From: an uncultured Eubacteriales bacterium
GTDB taxonomy: Bacteria; Bacillota; Clostridia; Christensenellales; CAG-917
Direction: 5' to 3'
Assembly: GCA_900322215.1 (NCBI GenBank)
Contig: ONYW01000001.1
Span: forward strand, 30-64,029
Length of the DNA stretch: 64,000 bases
This document shows, one piece after another, positions 1 through 49,239 of the stretch (positions within the stretch are counted from its first letter, which is position 1; each line of letters begins with the position of its first letter). The notes beneath the pieces are model-generated. The model was given only the letters and a program-made list of their open reading frames with translations. It had not been told where the DNA came from and searched no databases. Both the position numbers and the translations under genes were made by a program.

Positions 1-82
1 ACCTCGGGTGACCAACCCAGTGTACTAAAGCGTACACGGTTGGGCAAACGGGGTGCGATAACACAGCAGGTCGCTAAATCAC
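1..82 (+). ncRNA. Structured intergenic element, copy A (subtype 2; 5' part lost at window edge)
   Basis: Nearly identical to 48188-48268. Hairpin CCAACC-CA-GUGUAC / GUACAC-GGUUGG at 12-43, core GCGAUAACACAGCAGGUCGC at 55-74. The closing-stem half UAAAUCAC (75-82) overlaps the mnmM stop codon (79-81). A U5 tract follows at 86-90. Strand is tentative. Confidence 0.5.
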
Positions 83-630
83 GCGTTTTTGAGAATAAAT
101 ATCGGTATCGGCGGATCCTTCTTCCAGTTGTGGAACGTGGTGACAAGCACTTGATATTTTGCGTCGTCGAGAGTTTTCAACCACGGCAGGAGCGCGTCCT
201 TCTCTTCATACCCGCTATCACCGCCGTAGTAGACGGAAACGCACATCAAGCCACCGCTTTTAAGCAGTCTGAGTCCTTTTTCTATCGCTTCGCGAGTCGA
301 GTCGAAATGCGTAAAAATCGAGTGATTTCCGCGCGGAAGATAACCCAAATTGAAGACGATACAGTCCACGGTATTCTCGTCTGCATACTTGTCCATATTA
401 GCATGTGAGTCCAAAACGACGTCGGCTTCGAGCCCTTTTTCTTCAAGCAACTTCTTCGTGCTGTCCACAGCCTCTTGCTGAATATCGAACGCTATGACTT
501 TGCCGGACTTCCCGACGAGTTCCGCAAGAAAAGCCGTGTCATATCCGCGCCCTGCCGTTGCGTCGATGCAAAGCGAGCCTTCTTTTACGTATTGCTTTAT
601 TGTGCCGTGTACGATTGATAGTGCGTTCAT
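79..630 (-). CDS. mnmM: MnmM/YtqB-family class I SAM methyltransferase (tRNA mnm5s2U34 methyltransferase)
   Basis: 183 aa. IDATAGRGYDTAFLAELVG SAM-binding motif, VFNLGYLP motif, C-terminal KKDPPIPIFILK. Collinear with B. subtilis YtqB as I recall it. Confidence 0.8.
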   Translation of the reverse strand: MNALSIVHGTIKQYVKEGSLCIDATAGRGYDTAFLAELVGKSGKVIAFDIQQEAVDSTKKLLEEKGLEADVVLDSHANMDKYADENTVDCIVFNLGYLPRGNHSIFTHFDSTREAIEKGLRLLKSGGLMCVSVYYGGDSGYEEKDALLPWLKTLDDAKYQVLVTTFHNWKKDPPIPIFILKNA

Positions 631-41316: not shown

Positions 41317-41380
41317 TGGGATTTTATTACTTAAAATAATGTGAGATTGGTTTCTGTTATTCTTTTTTCCCAAAACCGCT

Positions 41381-41486
41381 CAGATTGGATGAGATGCTAG
41401 GAAAGGCACCTTTGGGAGAAGGGCGCGTACACGATCGTACGTAACCGACTACCAAAGGCGACTTGACAACGCAGGTCGCCAAGCTG
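41381..41486 (+). ncRNA. Structured intergenic element, copy C1 (subtype 1)
   Basis: cagauugg-GAUGAGAUGC...GGGCGCGUAC-acgauc-GUACGUAACCGAC...GACAACGCAGGUCGC-caagcug. The flanks are complementary and a UUUUCUU tract follows. Confidence 0.55.
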
Positions 41487-41509
41487 TGCGGTTTTCTTGC
41501 AATAACGTG

Positions 41510-41617
41510 ATATTTGGATGAGTTGCAAGGCATCGTGCCTTGAACAGCAGACCCAATGTACAACGCCGTACATGGTCTGGTGGGCAAGGTGCGATAACAC
41601 AGCAAATCGCCAAATAG
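41510..41617 (+). ncRNA. Structured intergenic element, copy C2 (subtype 2)
   Basis: auauuugg-GAUGAGUUG-[CAAGGCA-ucg-UGCCUUG]-[CAGACC-CA-AUGUAC-aacgcc-GUACAU-GGUCUG]-...GCGAUAACACAGCAAAUCGC-caaauag. It ends 4 nt before the pfp stop codon. Confidence 0.55.
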
Positions 41618-41621
41618 CGCG

Positions 41622-42872
41622 TTATTTAGCGTAGATCTTTTTGAGGCGCGCAAACCTAGGCAACCCATTCTCAAGCGGAGCCTTCGCGTCGCCTTGAATG
41701 AGCGGAAGCGCGTAGGTGATGAAATCGTCGCTCACGTTGTTGCCCTCTGCGTTGATCCAGCCGAGCGGAACTTTCTTTTCGGTGTTGGCGGCGTATTCGA
41801 GTGGCATGAGGACATTCTTGTTGTAGTAGTTGCCTTGCTCGTCAAAGTGACGCTCGAAGATAACCATCTTGTCCGTCTCGCCGTTCACTGCCGCGCGAAC
41901 TGCGGAAACGCCTGCCTCGAAAGCCTCTTCGACGTCGGTCTTGGACGCGAGGTGCGCTCCGCAACGTTGCATGAGTGAAAGTTCGATGCCACGTGTTTTG
42001 AATCCTGATTTTTCCTTGATGAGGTTTGCAAGGATGGACGCGACGCCACCGAGTTGCGCGTGACCGAAACTGTCGCGTGCCGCTTGCGGACCAAAGGATT
42101 CGCAAATGAGTTGACCTTCCTTGTTGTGGATACCCTCGGATACGACGGCGATACACTTGTTGCCGTTTCTCGCGCATACAGCCTTGACGTCTTCGACAAA
42201 CTTGTCGATGTCAAAGTCTACTTCCGGGAGGTAGATGAGGTCGGCGCCGAGTCCGTTCACCTTTGCGAGAGCCGCCGCTGCCGTGAGCCAGCCAGCGTGT
42301 CTGCCCATAGCCTCGATTATGCACACCATCGGCGTGTCATACACCTTTGCGTCGAGGTTGACTTCCATAACCGTAGTTGCGATGTACTTTGCCGCGGACG
42401 CATAACCCGGGCAGTGATCCGTGCCATAGAGGTCGTTGTCGATGGTCTTCGGAACGCCGATAACGTTGATGTCCCAGCCGGATTTTTGCATATACTTGGA
42501 AATCTTGTTGCAGGTGTCCATACTGTCGTTTCCGCCGTTGTAGAAGAAGTAGCGGACGTTGTACTTTTTGAAGACTTCCAAAATCCTCTTGTAGTCCGTA
42601 TCGTCAACGTCTGCGTCTTTGAGTTTGTAGCGGACGGAACCGAGTGCGGATGACGGAGTGTATTTGAGAAGGTCGATTTCTCTAAGGTCTTCCTTTGAGA
42701 TGTCGAAGAACTTCTCGTTGAGAATACCGACAATACCGTGTTCCGCGCCGTAAACTGCGGTGATGTTGTCTTGAGCGAGAGCCTCGGTGAAAACACCCGC
42801 GGCACTTGCGTTGATAACTGACGTCGGACCGCCTGATTGTCCGAACATACATGCGCCTTTCAAGTTGTTCAT
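41622..42872 (-). CDS. pfp: 6-phosphofructokinase of the long, probably PPi-dependent type
   Basis: About 416 aa from the AUG at 42872, which has an AAGGAG RBS. GQSGGPTSVINAS, GGNDS and PKTIDNDL motifs. PPi specificity is inferred from the family pattern, not proven. Confidence 0.7.
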   Translation of the reverse strand: MNNLKGACMFGQSGGPTSVINASAAGVFTEALAQDNITAVYGAEHGIVGILNEKFFDISKEDLREIDLLKYTPSSALGSVRYKLKDADVDDTDYKRILEVFKKYNVRYFFYNGGNDSMDTCNKISKYMQKSGWDINVIGVPKTIDNDLYGTDHCPGYASAAKYIATTVMEVNLDAKVYDTPMVCIIEAMGRHAGWLTAAAALAKVNGLGADLIYLPEVDFDIDKFVEDVKAVCARNGNKCIAVVSEGIHNKEGQLICESFGPQAARDSFGHAQLGGVASILANLIKEKSGFKTRGIELSLMQRCGAHLASKTDVEEAFEAGVSAVRAAVNGETDKMVIFERHFDEQGNYYNKNVLMPLEYAANTEKKVPLGWINAEGNNVSDDFITYALPLIQGDAKAPLENGLPRFARLKKIYAK

Positions 42873-42901: not shown

Positions 42902-42999
42902 CGTTTGTTGTTTTATTAATTTAGAATAATATTTATTTCTTCCGGCTGCGCCAAAGGCGCAAAATTAATTCTATTTATACCTTAAATAAAGTTGTTTTT

Positions 43000-43345
43000 T
43001 TCATTCAGACGGGCTATCGTTGTTTAACCCTAAATGCAACACCCCTTCCTGCTCCGCCAGGTTTCCCCACCGCGGAACCTACCGAACACAAGTTGCTCAC
43101 TTTTAAGGAATAAACAAAACTGTCGTTCGCAACCTTGCTATTCCCTACAAGAGTGTATTACTCGCTCCGGGGACACCAAGTCGGCACTCTAAAATCCGGT
43201 TTTCTCTATTCTTTGCCACTTCGCCTTTGGGACGCTCCGCAACAAAATGTTCCAAAGTCTCGTACTGAGTGCAGACCGAGGCACTCCGGGGACTCCGCCA
43301 TTGCGGAGTCGGCTCCGTCTTCGAATGAGTGTGCGTTAGAAGCCC
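43000..43345 (-). other. Unassigned GC-rich, hairpin-dense non-coding region between pfkA and pfp (candidate ncRNA or long structured leader)
   Basis: No credible ORF. Perfect hairpins at 43291-43310 (8 bp), 43267-43286 (6 bp), 43150-43190, 43107-43144 and 43224-43257. Duplicated motif CTCCGGGGAC...GTCGGC at 43165-43185 and 43284-43313. Strand not determined. Confidence 0.3.
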
Positions 43346-43359
43346 TCAAACAAACTTCA

Positions 43360-44349: not shown

Positions 44350-44404
44350 ATATTACCTCGAGAATTGAATTCTAGTTTTTTATATTTATTTTCCGCTTAT
44401 AAAT

Positions 44405-44518
44405 CGTATGAGTGTGATGAGATGCGAGGAAGAGGGCCCGGGAACGGAGGGCGCGTACATATGCGTACGCAACCGACGAGCCAAGTGCCTCTGACAAAGC
44501 AGGTCGCTCACTCATGCG
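44405..44518 (+). ncRNA. Structured intergenic element, copy D (subtype 1)
   Basis: cguaugagug-u-GAUGAGAUGC...GGGCGCGUAC-auaugc-GUACGCAACCGAC...GACAAAGCAGGUCGC-u-cacucaugcg. The closing stem is 10 bp with one U-G pair. TATAAA lies at 44398-44403 and a U-rich tract at 44520-44530. Confidence 0.55.
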
Positions 44519-44520
44519 AT

Positions 44521-47500
44521 TTATTTTTTTGTTGTGAGTTTAACGCCCTTTTCCCCTACTATAAGTTGGAGTTTATGCAACAACTCGTCGTTCACGTCGA
44601 CCTTGTAGGGGAATTGCATGAGTTTGTATTCATCGCCGACTCTGACTTGTGCGCGGACAGGAGTCACGCCCGGGTGAATTTGAAGCACGCCTGTGACGAG
44701 TTCTTTCTCGCTGTTGTCGCGGAGGAGTACGTAGAGGACGCTGCTCGGAGCGGATTTTGCCTCCTCCGCCCTTTGGTTCTTCCAGGGTTCGACCTTGTCT
44801 ATCGTGACCTTTGGTTCGCTCTCGTCTTTTAAGTCAATGCGCCCCGTGAGTTTTATCGGTTCTTCGCCCTCCAAAAACGCGCCGTATCTCTCGTAGACTT
44901 TCGGGAACATGGAAAACGCAACGGAGCCCATCTTGTCCTCCACTCTACCGACAGCGAATTTGAGTTGTTTCGCCGTCGTCTTCTTTTCAAACGACGATAC
45001 GATGCAACCGAATTTCACTTGCTTGCCGTCGAGTGCTTTGTCCGCGACCATGACGGTCTCGCCGTCCTCGTTTTGTTCCTCGACGAGGAGTTGGCTCGTG
45101 TCAAAGTTGAACTCCTTGCTCCAGTCGTCGTAGTCGTCGAGCGGGTGACCGGAGATATACATTCCAAGCACTTCGCGCTCGAAGGACAGGCGTTGCGCCT
45201 TGTCGTACTCCCTCACCTCGCTATACTGGATTTCGTCGTCCTCGATGAGTTCGTCAAAGAGGGAGACTTGACCTGTGAGTTTGCTCTTTTTGTCGTTCAG
45301 GACCGTGTCCATAATGCGCTCGTATGACGCCATAAGCGTTGCTCTGCCCTTGCCGAAAGAGTCCATCGCTCCGCCCTTTATGAGGCTTTCTATCATACGC
45401 TTGTTGATTTGCCCCGCGCATCTGTCCAAAAGGTCTCGAATATCTTTGAACGGGCCGTTTTTTGCACGCTCTTCAAGCAGGTATTCCATAGCCTGCTCGC
45501 CGACGTTCTTTATGCCCATGAGTCCGTAGCGGACGTTTTCGCCCTCGATGGAGAAATATTTCTTTGAGCGGTTGATGTCAGGCGGCAAAATCTTCACTCC
45601 CGTGCGCTTGAGATAGTTCATATAGTGCTTGACTTCGTCGGCGGAGGTGATACGGTTGTTGACGACTGCGACGATAAAGTGCGACGGATAGTAAAGTTTT
45701 AGATACGCGGTTTGATAGGTCAAATACGTGTACGCCGCCGCGTGGGATTTGTTGAACGCGTATGAGGCAAATTTCAAAATCTCGTCAAAGAGTTTGTTCG
45801 CGACCTTTTCGTCCACGCCGTTTGCGACCGCGCCCTCGACGACCTTGCCCGTCTTGTCTCCGTCAAGCACGCCGCCGTGGAGGAATATATCTCTCATTTT
45901 TTGCAGGACTTCGAGTTTTTTCTTTGCGATAGCACGGCGCATTATGTCCGCTCCGCCAAAGGAGAAGCCCGCGAGTTTTTGCGCTATTTGCATGACCTGC
46001 TCTTGGTAGACGATACAGCCGTAGGTATTGCCCAAAATCTCCTCCAAGCGCGGATCGTCGTATACGACTTGATCGGGGTGACGTTTGCCCTGCAAGAAGA
46101 GGTCGATAAACTGCATAGGTCCCGGGCGGTACATGGAGATGCCTGCGGTGACGTCTTCAAAGTTCTCGGGTTGCAGTTGCGCCATAAACTTTTTCATACC
46201 GCCGCTTTCAAGTTGGAACACGGCCTCGCAGTCGCCCGAGCCGATAAGTTTGTAGACCTCGGGGTTGTCATAGCCGAGTTCGTGGAAGTCGAGCGTTATG
46301 CCCTTGTCTTCCTTTATGAGTTTCAAAGCCTCGTCGATGTCCGTCAAGGTTTTGAGCCCCAAAAAGTCCATTTTTAGAAGACCGAGTTCTTCGACTATCG
46401 CCTTGTCAAACTGCGTCGTAATGACAGGACCGTTTCTTGAAAGAGCGCAATGTTCGACGACGGGATCCGCGCAAATAACGACGCCCGCCGCGTGCATCGA
46501 GGTCTGCCTCGGCATACCCTCGAGTTGCATGGCGATGTCGATGCAGTTCTTTGCCGCCTCGTTCGTCTCGTAAATCTTTTTGAAATCAGGGCTGTAGAGT
46601 TCGCTCCCCTCGATGAGCAGTTGCGGGAGCAACACTTTGCCGACGGGGATCTCCTTGACCCAGTTGTTCGCTTCGTTGTACGGAACATCGAGCACGCGCG
46701 CGACGTCTTTGACGACCGCCTTTGCGCTCATCGTGGAGTATGCGATGATTTGAGAAACGTTGTCTTTGCCGTACTTTTTGATGCAATAGTCGATGACTTC
46801 CTGCCTTCTTACAAAGCAGAAGTCGATATCGAAGTCAGGCATAGACACGCGCTCTTCCGACAAAAATCTTTCAAAGAGAAGATTGTATTTGAGCGGATCG
46901 ATGTCCGTGATACCGATAGAAAACGCGACGATACTGCCACAACCGCTTCCGCGTCCGGGGCCTACCGGTATGCCCATTTGTTGCGCCGCGTGCACGTAGT
47001 CCCAAACAATGAGGAAGTAGCCGTCGAATCCGCATTTGTGAATGACGCCGAGTTCGTATTCGAGCCTCGTCTTGATCTCTTCGGTTATGACCTTGTATTT
47101 TTTTGTGATGTTCTTTTCCGCAAGATAGCGAAGATACCCTGCCTCGTCGAGTCCGAGACTCTCCATCTCTTCGCAGGTGTATTTCGGAATGATAGAGGCG
47201 TGCTTTGTGATGAAATAGTCGCCGTCCACCTTGTCCGCGATTTCCTTTGTCGAAGCGATAGCCTCGGGGCACCAGGAGAAGAGTTCTTCCATCTCCTCCC
47301 CGCTCTTGAGATAGAACTCGTCATTCGTAAAGCGCGCGGGATTCATCTCGCTCTTTTTGCAACCGAGAGTTATGCACATCATCGTGTCTTGAAGATCCGC
47401 GTCCTCTTTTTCTATGTAGTGAACGTCGTTTGTCGCGACGACTTTGACGCCTATCTCCTTTGCAATTCTACAGAGCGGATTCATGACGATTTTGTCCTCG

Positions 47501-48087
47501 TCGAGGTGATGGTCTTGAAGTTCTATATAAAAGTCGCCGGGAGCAAACATATCGCGCATGCGAATTGCCAGCTCCTTTGCCTCGTTATACTTCCCCTGCA
47601 AAATGAGGTGCGGAATTTGCCCCGCAAGACATGCGGAGAGGCAAATAAGCCCTTCGCTATGTTGAGCAAGGACGTTGAGGTCAATCCTCGGTTTCATATA
47701 AAAACCGTCCACAAACGCCATAGAGGAGAGTTTCATTAGGTTTTTATAGCCCGTCATATTTTTGGCGAGAAGTATGAGGTGATAGCGCTGTTTGAGCACG
47801 TCGGGAGTCTTTGCATACATGTCGTCCGCGACGTAAAATTCCTCCCCGATGATAGGCTTTATTCCGTCCGCGCGAAGAGTGGACACAAACGTGTACACTC
47901 CGTACATATTGCCGTGGTCGGTGATGGCAACGGCGGACATACCGCGCGCCTTTAGAGCCTCGGAGAGAGGATGCAGTTTTTTCGTCTTGTTCGGATCTTT
48001 CGGATCTGGCACGACTTTAATAAGCCTCACCGCTCCGTCAAGCAAACTGTATTCCGTGTGTAAATGTAGATGTACAAAATCTGTCAT
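44521..48087 (-). CDS. dnaE: DNA polymerase III alpha subunit
   Basis: 1188 aa. N-terminal PHP domain (FVHLHLHTEYSLLDG), polymerase core and a C-terminal OB region. Confidence 0.95.
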   Translation of the reverse strand: MTDFVHLHLHTEYSLLDGAVRLIKVVPDPKDPNKTKKLHPLSEALKARGMSAVAITDHGNMYGVYTFVSTLRADGIKPIIGEEFYVADDMYAKTPDVLKQRYHLILLAKNMTGYKNLMKLSSMAFVDGFYMKPRIDLNVLAQHSEGLICLSACLAGQIPHLILQGKYNEAKELAIRMRDMFAPGDFYIELQDHHLDEDKIVMNPLCRIAKEIGVKVVATNDVHYIEKEDADLQDTMMCITLGCKKSEMNPARFTNDEFYLKSGEEMEELFSWCPEAIASTKEIADKVDGDYFITKHASIIPKYTCEEMESLGLDEAGYLRYLAEKNITKKYKVITEEIKTRLEYELGVIHKCGFDGYFLIVWDYVHAAQQMGIPVGPGRGSGCGSIVAFSIGITDIDPLKYNLLFERFLSEERVSMPDFDIDFCFVRRQEVIDYCIKKYGKDNVSQIIAYSTMSAKAVVKDVARVLDVPYNEANNWVKEIPVGKVLLPQLLIEGSELYSPDFKKIYETNEAAKNCIDIAMQLEGMPRQTSMHAAGVVICADPVVEHCALSRNGPVITTQFDKAIVEELGLLKMDFLGLKTLTDIDEALKLIKEDKGITLDFHELGYDNPEVYKLIGSGDCEAVFQLESGGMKKFMAQLQPENFEDVTAGISMYRPGPMQFIDLFLQGKRHPDQVVYDDPRLEEILGNTYGCIVYQEQVMQIAQKLAGFSFGGADIMRRAIAKKKLEVLQKMRDIFLHGGVLDGDKTGKVVEGAVANGVDEKVANKLFDEILKFASYAFNKSHAAAYTYLTYQTAYLKLYYPSHFIVAVVNNRITSADEVKHYMNYLKRTGVKILPPDINRSKKYFSIEGENVRYGLMGIKNVGEQAMEYLLEERAKNGPFKDIRDLLDRCAGQINKRMIESLIKGGAMDSFGKGRATLMASYERIMDTVLNDKKSKLTGQVSLFDELIEDDEIQYSEVREYDKAQRLSFEREVLGMYISGHPLDDYDDWSKEFNFDTSQLLVEEQNEDGETVMVADKALDGKQVKFGCIVSSFEKKTTAKQLKFAVGRVEDKMGSVAFSMFPKVYERYGAFLEGEEPIKLTGRIDLKDESEPKVTIDKVEPWKNQRAEEAKSAPSSVLYVLLRDNSEKELVTGVLQIHPGVTPVRAQVRVGDEYKLMQFPYKVDVNDELLHKLQLIVGEKGVKLTTKK

Positions 48088-48153: not shown

Positions 48154-48273
48154 GGTGCGTGAGTGGGATGAGATGCGCGGCATCGCGCTTTGAATGACCA
48201 ACCCAGTGTACTCAAGCGTACACGGTTGGGCAGGCAAAGTTCGATAACAAAGCAGGTCGCCCACTCACACGCC
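48154..48273 (+). ncRNA. Structured intergenic element, copy E (subtype 2)
   Basis: ggugcgugagugg-GAUGAGAU-[GCGCG-gcau-CGCGC]-[CCAACC-CA-GUGUAC-ucaagc-GUACAC-GGUUGG]-...UCGAUAACAAAGCAGGUCGC-ccacucacacgcc. The 3' stem half contains the whiA stop codon and its last two sense codons. Confidence 0.55.
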
Positions 48274-49239
48274 TGAAAGTTCTTCGCTTATCTCCACCAA
48301 CTTCCTAAGTCTATGATTTAGCGCGCTCTTGCTTATGCCAAGCGCGTCCGCAAGGTCTTGAAGACTGCTCTCGGGGTTGTCCATACGCGCTTGCGCCGTC
48401 TCTTTGAGAATCGGGGTGAGAGCCTCAAAAAGCCCCGCGCCCATGATTTTGCCTATTGCGAGCAAGTGCTTGCTTGCGGCGGCGAAAGTCTTGTCCATAT
48501 TTGCCGTTTCGCAGATGATAGCGCGGTTGAGGCTGTTTGCAGTCTCGCGTTCGTTGATTATCATTTGGAGTTTCAACACGCTCTCGGTGAGTCCGAAGAT
48601 GGAGAGCAGTCTTGCGATCTCGTCCTTGTCTTTGAAGTAGACGAGCGTATGGTCTCCTCTCTCGCTCGTCTTTGCCTGCAAGCCGAAGAAGTCGAGAAGT
48701 GCGACCAAATCGTTTGCATAGTCCTCGTCGTCCAGTTGAAATTCGAGATGGTAGCCGTCGCGCTTCTCCTCATCCGCGGACATGGACGGCACGTACACGC
48801 TGCCCGTGCCCAAGAAGAGTCCTGCAAGAAACGCGCTCTTTTCCTCTTCCGTTTCAAGGAGTTCGTTCGGAGTGCCTTCGACAAAGCCGTTTAAGGCGTC
48901 GCCGTCCACCGTCATAAGGCGGAAGTCTACGAGTATCTGTTTTGAAAACCCGTATGGCACCTGGAGCGAACAAATTTGTTTGCCAGCCTTAGGTCCCGAT
49001 TTTGCGGTGGTGAGAGAGAGTTCAAACTCGGTCGGATAGAGCGACTTGAACGCCTCAACTATCTTCATACCTTCGTCAAAACTGTCGAGCGCAAGGCACA
49101 AATTCATACGCTTATTCACGATTTCAAGCGTGCCGACCGCCTTTGTGAGTCCCGCGAGAAAAGCCGTAAGTCGAGACTTGTCGCTTGGCAAATTTTCGGT
49201 TATTTCATATTGCACTTCATCCTTAAAAGTCTCGCTCAT
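48265..49239 (-). CDS. whiA: DNA-binding protein WhiA
   Basis: 324 aa. LAGLFLGTGS LAGLIDADG-like region and a C-terminal HTH (LQDLADALGISKSALNHRLRKL). Confidence 0.9.
   Translation of the reverse strand: MSETFKDEVQYEITENLPSDKSRLTAFLAGLTKAVGTLEIVNKRMNLCLALDSFDEGMKIVEAFKSLYPTEFELSLTTAKSGPKAGKQICSLQVPYGFSKQILVDFRLMTVDGDALNGFVEGTPNELLETEEEKSAFLAGLFLGTGSVYVPSMSADEEKRDGYHLEFQLDDEDYANDLVALLDFFGLQAKTSERGDHTLVYFKDKDEIARLLSIFGLTESVLKLQMIINERETANSLNRAIICETANMDKTFAAASKHLLAIGKIMGAGLFEALTPILKETAQARMDNPESSLQDLADALGISKSALNHRLRKLVEISEELSGV

Follow-up and report, generated by a model that had tools for sequence, protein, structure and literature searches.

The last codons and stop codon of whiA probably lie in the terminal inverted repeat of a dispersed hairpin element

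Introduction

A hairpin repeat (copy E) lies between whiA and dnaE in a 64-kb window, the whole stretch of 64,000 nucleotides that we analyzed, from the 1.59-Mb genome (G000) of an uncultured Eubacteriales bacterium, and its closing stem includes the last codons and the stop codon of whiA. The preliminary description of this locus proposed that the variable stem of each copy is tailored to the gene end that it abuts, either through co-evolution of the outer arm with the coding sequence or through capture of flanking sequence in inverted form upon insertion. The locus thus raises the question of whether the closing stem belongs to the gene or to the repeat. Positions of the lettered copies are those of the window.

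Results

The closing stem of copy E contains the end of whiA

The features of the junction are as follows.

48154 to 48166, plus strand: dnaE-side (5') arm of P1, the closing stem of copy E, reading ggtgcgtgagtgg.
48167 to 48260, plus strand: core of copy E, 94 nt, running from GATGAGATGC through an apical GTGTAC-loop-GTACAC hairpin to GATAACAAAGCAGGTCGC.
48261 to 48273, plus strand: 3' arm of P1, reading ccactcacacgcc, in which the whiA codons GGC GTG TGA appear as their reverse complement.
48265 to 49239, minus strand: whiA (Pfam HTH_WhiA and LAGLIDADG_WhiA), ending TCA GGC GTG TGA, with a product ending EELSGV*.
48265 to 48267, minus strand: the present whiA stop codon TGA, which is the TCA at positions +5 to +7 of the copy E arm.
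44521 to 48087, minus strand: dnaE, whose start is 66 nt downstream of copy E.

The arms, which are 94 nt apart, pair at 12 of 13 positions. The layout first described for P1, 8 bp, a 1x1 mismatch and 4 bp, holds, though one of the four outer pairs is a wobble: from the core outward there are eight Watson-Crick pairs, a C48158 x A48269 mismatch, G-C, a T-G wobble, G-C and G-C. We also confirmed that the 3' arm includes the end of whiA, with the stop at 48265-48267, a Val codon at 48268-48270 and a Gly codon at 48271-48273, and that copy A includes the mnmM stop in the same way (TGA, read as tca at 79-81 within its 3' arm). The stem of copy E is not a chance palindrome: the copy scored 131.6 bits (E about 4e-32) with a covariance model built from 28 copies, copy E among them, and the predicted fold of its 120-nt unit (-62.9 kcal/mol) had a z of -6.8 relative to shuffles. 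Copy E departs from the family at its edges, where both the A-run and the T-run are missing and the outer GG of the 5' arm stands where the family usually has AC or CC.

Copy E belongs to a family of covarying hairpin repeats

The family consists of hairpin repeats of ~125 nt, with at least 130-177 copies in the 1.59-Mb source genome; a profile made from 78 seed copies gave 177 nhmmer matches, 132 of which contained both core anchors. These counts are lower bounds because there are additional sub-families whose 3' core words differ. The consensus reads (T)AAAAC-CGCG-(8 variable nt)-GATGAGATGC...GTAC-loop-GTAC...GCAGGTCGC-(8-nt complement)-CGCG-GTTTT(A). Among the 28 copies of the copy E sub-family, 94.4% of the cells of 43 proposed pairs were paired and 23 of the 43 pairs had changed on both sides, values that were matched in 0 of 500 shuffles and in no slid register. 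Nearly all copies have complementary arms of 12-17 nt, i.e., terminal inverted repeats, and we infer that pairing is under selection. In 91 of 107 copies, the plus strand as written folds more stably than the opposite strand (mean gap, 7.7 kcal/mol), one reason being that conserved U-G pairs would turn into A x C mismatches there.

In 68 copies, a CCGC/GCGG stem base is bounded by A- and T-runs of 3-7 nt, and an A-run, GC stem and T-run of this kind would allow typical copies to act as two-way intrinsic terminators. Flanks of the form T...A were present in 28 of these 68 copies, which fits duplication of a TA target, yet any palindrome would give the same result.

Rfam 15 gave no match at gathering thresholds over the whole window, permissive thresholds around copies E, B and C gave chance-level matches only (E about 5.7), and nothing was found on locus L013. 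A literature search found no paper describing the hairpin family. Hammerhead, C/D-box or K-turn, SRP and group II domain 5 motifs were considered for the core and rejected, since spacing and invariant residues did not fit by eye and Rfam gave no support.

Within the genus, 30 of 31 genomes contained the family, and copy number per genome ranged from 0 to more than 100. A cross-phylum pattern scan, for which we estimated about 1,000 chance matches, was counted only where the covariance model confirmed the match. Confirmed relatives were found in Bacteroidales, Muribaculaceae, Porphyromonas, Ezakiella, Christensenella, Desulfatibacillaceae and other Thermodesulfobacteriota, several Patescibacteria, Gammaproteobacteria, Variovorax and Lacibacterium; the scored relatives span Bacillota, Bacteroidota, Thermodesulfobacteriota, Patescibacteria and Pseudomonadota. 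The invariance of the two core words across phyla is partly built in because the scan fixed both words; conservation of the AGGC and AAC words and of the covarying apical GTAC hairpin is independent of that design.

The window contains four other copies, listed here with mnmM.

1 to 90, plus strand: copy A, lacking its 5' part, as the window and the contig begin there.
79 to 630, minus strand: mnmM (NF053511, 215 bits against a cut-off of 135).
41371 to 41496, plus strand: copy B, the distal half of the tandem pair B/C.
41500 to 41627, plus strand: copy C; the stop of a pfp-like gene is the TTA within its GTTATTT run.
44403 to 44521, plus strand: copy D, with arms AATCGTATGAGTG / TCACTCATGCGATT, docked on the dnaE stop.

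Copy D starts directly after the native TAA of dnaE, and the stop position is identical in the related species G005, where this site is empty. The B/C site at pfp holds two copies in G000 and a single copy in G005, and the GTTATTT run of copy C is mirrored by AATAAC on its 5' arm. At copy A the native TAG of mnmM has been replaced, and the native K-N codons AAA AAC now constitute the A-run. A 105-codon open reading frame at 41357-41674 on the minus strand, which spans copies B and C, is an artefact of the repeats; reading frames of this kind could be called as genes by annotation pipelines.

The inner arms of copy E are family sequence

The inner 11 nt of the copy E arms, TGCGTGAGTGG / CCACTCACACG, are each within one mismatch of three other copies and recur within one to two mismatches in copies that abut no related gene. 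The look-alike arms are as follows.

C16:21408: CCGTGTGAGTGA / TCACTCACACGG.
C25:20006: CTGCGTGAGTGA / TCACTCACACAG.
C44:36273: CTGCGCGAGTGG / CCACTCGCGCAG.

The C x A mismatch of copy E is likewise common to several copies, and TCA occupies arm positions +5 to +7 in 34 of 106 copies, although it is the stop of a converging reading frame in only 8. Arm 8-mers are reused across many unrelated loci, e.g., CAAATAGC 12 times and TAAATCAC 11 times. Because the inner arms and the position of TCA are typical of the family, the TGA and GTG of whiA are element sequence. The proposal that the stem is tailored to the gene end is thus not supported for the stop and Val codons, as the arms recur elsewhere and the native WhiA tail of the relatives differs (see below).

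We considered whether the 5' arm of copy E might nevertheless have been reshaped by selection to pair with codons constrained by whiA, which would make the stem partly tailored. Since the stop and Val codons match the consensus of the arm, co-evolution of this kind is limited to two or three of the 13 pairs. The three outermost pairs of copy E (columns 5-7 with 122-124), whose 3' partners are the Gly codon, are G-C, G-C and U-G; all are off consensus on both sides and yet paired, whereas the family mostly has A-U (25 of 28), C-G (16 of 28) and C-G (9 of 28) at these columns. Chance alone would give pairing at all three in about 5% of cases, GG/CC outer arms also occur in copies elsewhere (C24:11657 and C25:6345), and all three outer positions pair in 15 of 46 copies without an abutting stop compared to 14 of 40 TAA-docked copies. 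Outside whiA, the sole clearly orthologous copy pair, G000 C38:74985 and G005 C4:168389 (80% identical), in which a reading frame ending MIKPAD* crosses the entire 3' arm, shows a synonymous change of AAA to AAG (Lys) that is mirrored by a distal A to G, and at C36:74856 an arm-internal TGA stop is mirrored by TGACC on the opposite arm. Support for co-evolution in the family is, therefore, real but thin: the mirrored Lys change and the outer pairs of copy E fit the earlier proposal that the arm follows the coding sequence, while the stop and Val codons do not. For copy E itself, we regard reshaping of the 5' arm by selection as unlikely.

Alleles of the copy docked on the rpsI stop differ around 1011-1030, where L200 has the A-run TAACAAAC and L198, L199 and L201 have TAAAAAAC, with the distal arm GTTTGTTA in both; the result is a C-G pair in one allele and an A x G mismatch in the other. 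These alleles may represent a polymorphic intermediate of compensatory change.

Relatives have other WhiA tails and empty junctions

Empty sites at the whiA-dnaE junction had been suggested as a point of comparison, and they exist in G005 and G022, the two closest species with a simple junction, both with other WhiA tails. In G005, the junction reads CCG GAC AGC GAA CAA TAA, a 47-nt spacer and the dnaE ATG; in G022, it reads CCA GAT AAC GAA TAA followed by a 24-nt spacer. Congeners have WhiA proteins ending ELPDNE*, ELPDSEQ* and ELGDTE*, and a conspecific allele (P0123), about 98% identical by eye to the G000 protein, ends EQLTDNE*. Comparison of G000 with these relatives showed that whiA homology extends through CTT xCx G and is lost beyond it. 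The other native tails, together with homology that ends at this point, indicate that the acidic tail was replaced by an arm-borne Gly-Val-stop. Two more distant WhiA homologues end ELSDV and ELSDVE, so that WhiA tails are variable enough for SGV to look native by coincidence.

The sequence just distal to copy E, TTCTAAAAGCGAAAAATTTA, resembles the native stop and spacer of G005, CAATAAAACAAAAAGAATTTA. This resemblance suggests that copy E sits three to four codons upstream of the position of the old whiA stop. No near-identical empty site for copy E was found among WhiA variants and strain-level contigs; the alternative conspecific whiA allele carries a different repeat and has diverged close to the gene end. 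Near-identical empty sites were likewise not found at rpsI, hypA and pfkA, where every strain contig looked up was filled.

The whiA-dnaE junction is a hot spot (L073:2965-3161, L074:2466-2551 and L034:1240-1490, minus strand). G000 and L075 contain copy E there, the conspecific allele (P0123 contigs) and the congener G011 have the second dispersed repeat described below directly after the native whiA stop, and G005 and G022 have neither.

Copies dock on stop codons with a fixed polarity

Genome-wide, 87 of 111 copies in G000 face a converging gene end on their 3'-arm side, and the stop of 61 copies falls between -1 and +20 nt relative to the end of the core. The stop positions fall into classes.

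Stop at +14 to +16: 33 copies, the stop being the TTA that closes the T-run.
Stop at +11 to +13: 10 copies.
Stop at +4: 8 copies, with TCA in the arm, e.g., copies E and A.
Stop at -1 to +1: 7 copies.

Positions were quantised on the 3'-arm side only, distances on the 5'-arm side being broad, and the pattern was repeated in G005 and in single copies of other phyla. Between convergent gene pairs, the two element orientations relative to GC skew numbered 11 and 13. Because orientation is independent of GC skew, replication strand was rejected as the cause of the polarity, which is set by the abutting gene and not by the replication fork.

We then compared G000 with G005 across 726 reciprocal-best orthologue pairs. 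Where the element was present in one species only (58 pairs), C-terminal length was unchanged in 39, compared to 412 of 647 pairs without the element; in the boundary class it was unchanged in 31 of 39. As C-terminal lengths are mostly unchanged, most copies lie exactly at the native stop, and copies E and A are an intruding minority. At filled sites, 34 of 39 boundary stops were TAA, compared to 54% genome-wide, and all five truly empty orthologues that end in TGA had TAA when filled, against a background of 39%. These results suggest that the terminal TAA is the element's own. A simple target preference for TAAAA was considered and rejected as a sufficient explanation of docking, since unoccupied TAAAA words number 116 at stop codons and 1,320 elsewhere in non-coding DNA.

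Tandem arrays of two to three copies occur at G000:C52:62800-63240 (downstream of rpsI), G000:C40:6750-7120 and G005:C4:190511-190930. The gene-proximal copy alone touches the stop, later copies still open with TAAAAC, and array length varies between species.

The empty sites and the shared arms also bear on two ways in which a closing stem could be local in origin. An element that built its closing helix at insertion, by inverted copying of the adjacent target, would have arms that vary among copies, remain complementary and contain nucleotides of the gene end, as observed here. However, identical arm 8-mers occur at many unrelated loci, the arms of filled sites match the orthologous empty sites only in the stop and in A-rich bases, nearly all copies of a Desulfatibacillaceae genome carry one arm sequence, and a target-duplication test of G000 and G005 right flanks gave a similarity of 7.35, not significantly different from a null of 7.09 +/- 0.19, in intergenic DNA that is highly diverged. 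Given the few arm types shared among loci and their lack of likeness to empty sites, we reject flank capture in this genus, and for copy E we consider it extremely improbable.

Alternatively, a mobile core might land in the loop of an existing intrinsic terminator, in which case the closing stem would be the native terminator. Typical copies have an A-run, a GC stem and a T-run, native terminators of the genus resemble the outer stem (e.g., AAAACCGCACC-TTT-GGTGCGGTTTTTT), and IS1272 provides a precedent for targeting of hairpins (PMC5678879). Against this, the empty D and E sites of G005 and G022 lack a hairpin, empty orthologues have their native terminator 15-40 nt beyond the stop, this terminator is retained downstream of the element at several filled sites, and arms are common to different loci. 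Insertion into a terminator loop was accordingly rejected for copies D and E, and we judge it very unlikely as the origin of the closing stem. The native terminators of the genus are short and uniform, with an A-run, an 8-10 bp CCGC-type stem, a 3-4 nt loop and a T-run (G005 and G000 empty sites); the likeness of the outer stem to them may be a clue to the origin of the family's ends.

Occupancy turns over without a resident HUH transposase or reverse transcriptase

Occupancy differed between G000 and G005 at 58 of the 79 gene ends compared, and sites filled in both species often held different sub-types, both of which point to high turnover. From this pattern of presence and absence between species, the element appears to move. 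The Y1/HUH transposase PF01797 was absent from G000, G005, G011 and 24 of 31 genus genomes, and its presence was unrelated to element copy number among the 31. Reverse transcriptase PF00078 was absent from G000, G005, G011 and 21 of 31 genus genomes, and was present in G045, a genome without element copies. Both enzymes were rejected as mobilizers because they are missing from G000, G005 and most element-rich congeners. No parent insertion sequence with matching ends was found, and self-BLAST of G000 gave no repeat of IS size, the longest dispersed repeat being a non-coding family of about 450 bp.

The Desulfatibacillaceae MAG D1M01_5 (L134, L088, L095, L098, L118 and others) contains many copies with near-identical arms GCAGCCTGTTCAAAAAC / GTTTTTCAACAGGCTG, which suggests a recent burst. 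A second type of dispersed non-coding repeat is about 380-530 bp long and numbers at least 35 copies, 85-99% identical, with neither an open reading frame nor an Rfam match; it is found at window positions 43189-43331 (within the gap at 42903-43359) and at G000:C44:37867-38400 (L013:1624-2157). It often lies directly 5' of a hairpin copy, and it occupies the GC-rich gap between two phosphofructokinase genes. Downstream of the hypA-docked copy, strains differ by an extra insert that begins with another, interrupted element copy (L203/L206/L207 compared with L202/L204/L205 and G000:C36:58540-58680); the far junction of this insert was not found within 1.8 kb.

Discussion

Altogether, our results make it likely that copy E is an ordinary member of the family whose own terminal inverted repeat, docked inside whiA, supplies the stop codon of this gene. 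Under this explanation, the closing stem would travel with the element as its terminal inverted repeat and would be kept complementary by compensatory change, and the element would dock with its 3'-arm end at the stop codon of an opposite-strand gene. For most copies, the closing TTA of the T-run would then provide the TAA of the gene, leaving the protein unchanged. At whiA, the element would have come to lie a few codons inside the gene, with loss of the native acidic tail (T/P)-D-N-E*, and the whiA frame would now enter the arm by about 2.5 codons and end at the TGA of the arm. The family would thus represent a non-autonomous, structure-dependent mobile hairpin with a stop built into its terminal inverted repeat.

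In this explanation, the apparent causality is reversed: a housekeeping gene, whiA, lost its C-terminal tail and stop to a repeat, and it offers a concrete case of repeats rewriting gene ends, as well as a caution for annotation. With the whiA finding explained, the family is still unusual and has no Rfam match. Precise docking in one polarity, mostly unchanged proteins, TAA stops and no identifiable enzyme are together hard to reconcile with known transposition chemistries. A broader proposal, which we put forward tentatively and consider doubtful on balance, is that the family is a mobile hairpin, specific to one strand and polarity, that homes to the junction of the final sense codon and the stop in ordinary genes, replaces the stop with its own TAA so that the protein does not change, and does so in several phyla without a resident HUH, IS or RT enzyme. 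Homing of this kind might read its position from the end of translation or from ribosome-covered mRNA (e.g., an R-loop or single-strand boundary); alternatively, a housekeeping or phage-borne enzyme might move the folded single strand. A bench test is feasible, as the model-scored relatives include cultured strains of or among Ezakiella coagulans DSM 20705, Porphyromonas sp. HMSC065F10, Variovorax and Lacibacterium aquatile.

The A-run, GC-rich stem base and T-run of 68 copies resemble those of bidirectional rho-independent terminators; however, the element has a conserved core and a hairpin of about 55 bp, and short native terminators persist downstream of several copies. IS1272 targets hairpin-forming inverted repeats, replaces them and makes no target duplication (PMC5678879). 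It encodes its own transposase, whereas the hairpin family has no coding capacity and its empty sites have no pre-existing hairpin.

REP/BIME sequences and REPINs, which are moved by RAYT, are very abundant extragenic hairpins near the 3' ends of genes with strand-specific folding, and terminator or mRNA-stabilizing roles have been proposed for REP (PMC3733652). REP sequences are 20-40 bp long with GTAG or CGTC tags, in contrast to about 125 nt and the words GATGAGATGC and GCAGGTCGC in the hairpin family, and REP/REPIN need RAYT, whereas Y1/HUH enzymes are absent from G000, G005 and most element-rich congeners.

ERIC/IRU elements are imperfect palindromes that lie mostly between genes, are polymorphic among strains and are sometimes found inside or overlapping open reading frames. 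The enterobacterial small mobile repeats RU-1, RU-2 and RU-3 are also imperfect palindromes, mostly intergenic, strain-polymorphic and sometimes overlapping open reading frames (PMC2759123, PMC2229807). The likeness of both groups to the hairpin family lies in their form, imperfect palindromes of about 100-170 bp scattered mainly between genes; no sequence relationship was seen, and the hairpin family differs in its conserved asymmetric core, strict polarity, nucleotide-precise docking on stops and cross-phylum range.

Rickettsia palindromic elements and Neisseria Correia elements are palindromic repeats that are able to supply or alter host codons and stops, the former usually being translated in frame within genes and the latter having a known consensus and a duplicated TA target. 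The hairpin family resembles them as a palindromic insertion able to change host codons and stops, but leaves the protein unchanged in about two thirds of cases.

Finally, attC sites conserve structure over sequence, fold better on the strand opposite the upstream gene, have asymmetric bulges, and start at or over the stop of the upstream open reading frame in a fixed orientation. The hairpin family is like attC in its structural conservation, strand-biased folding, asymmetric bulges, start at a stop codon and fixed orientation. However, the R''/R' consensus RYYYAAC / GTTRRRY is missing, the ends reading TAAAAC...GTTTTA instead, and while attC sites lie among cassettes with their conserved words at the ends, the hairpin family lies beside housekeeping genes (dnaE, whiA and rpsI) and has its conserved words within the stem.
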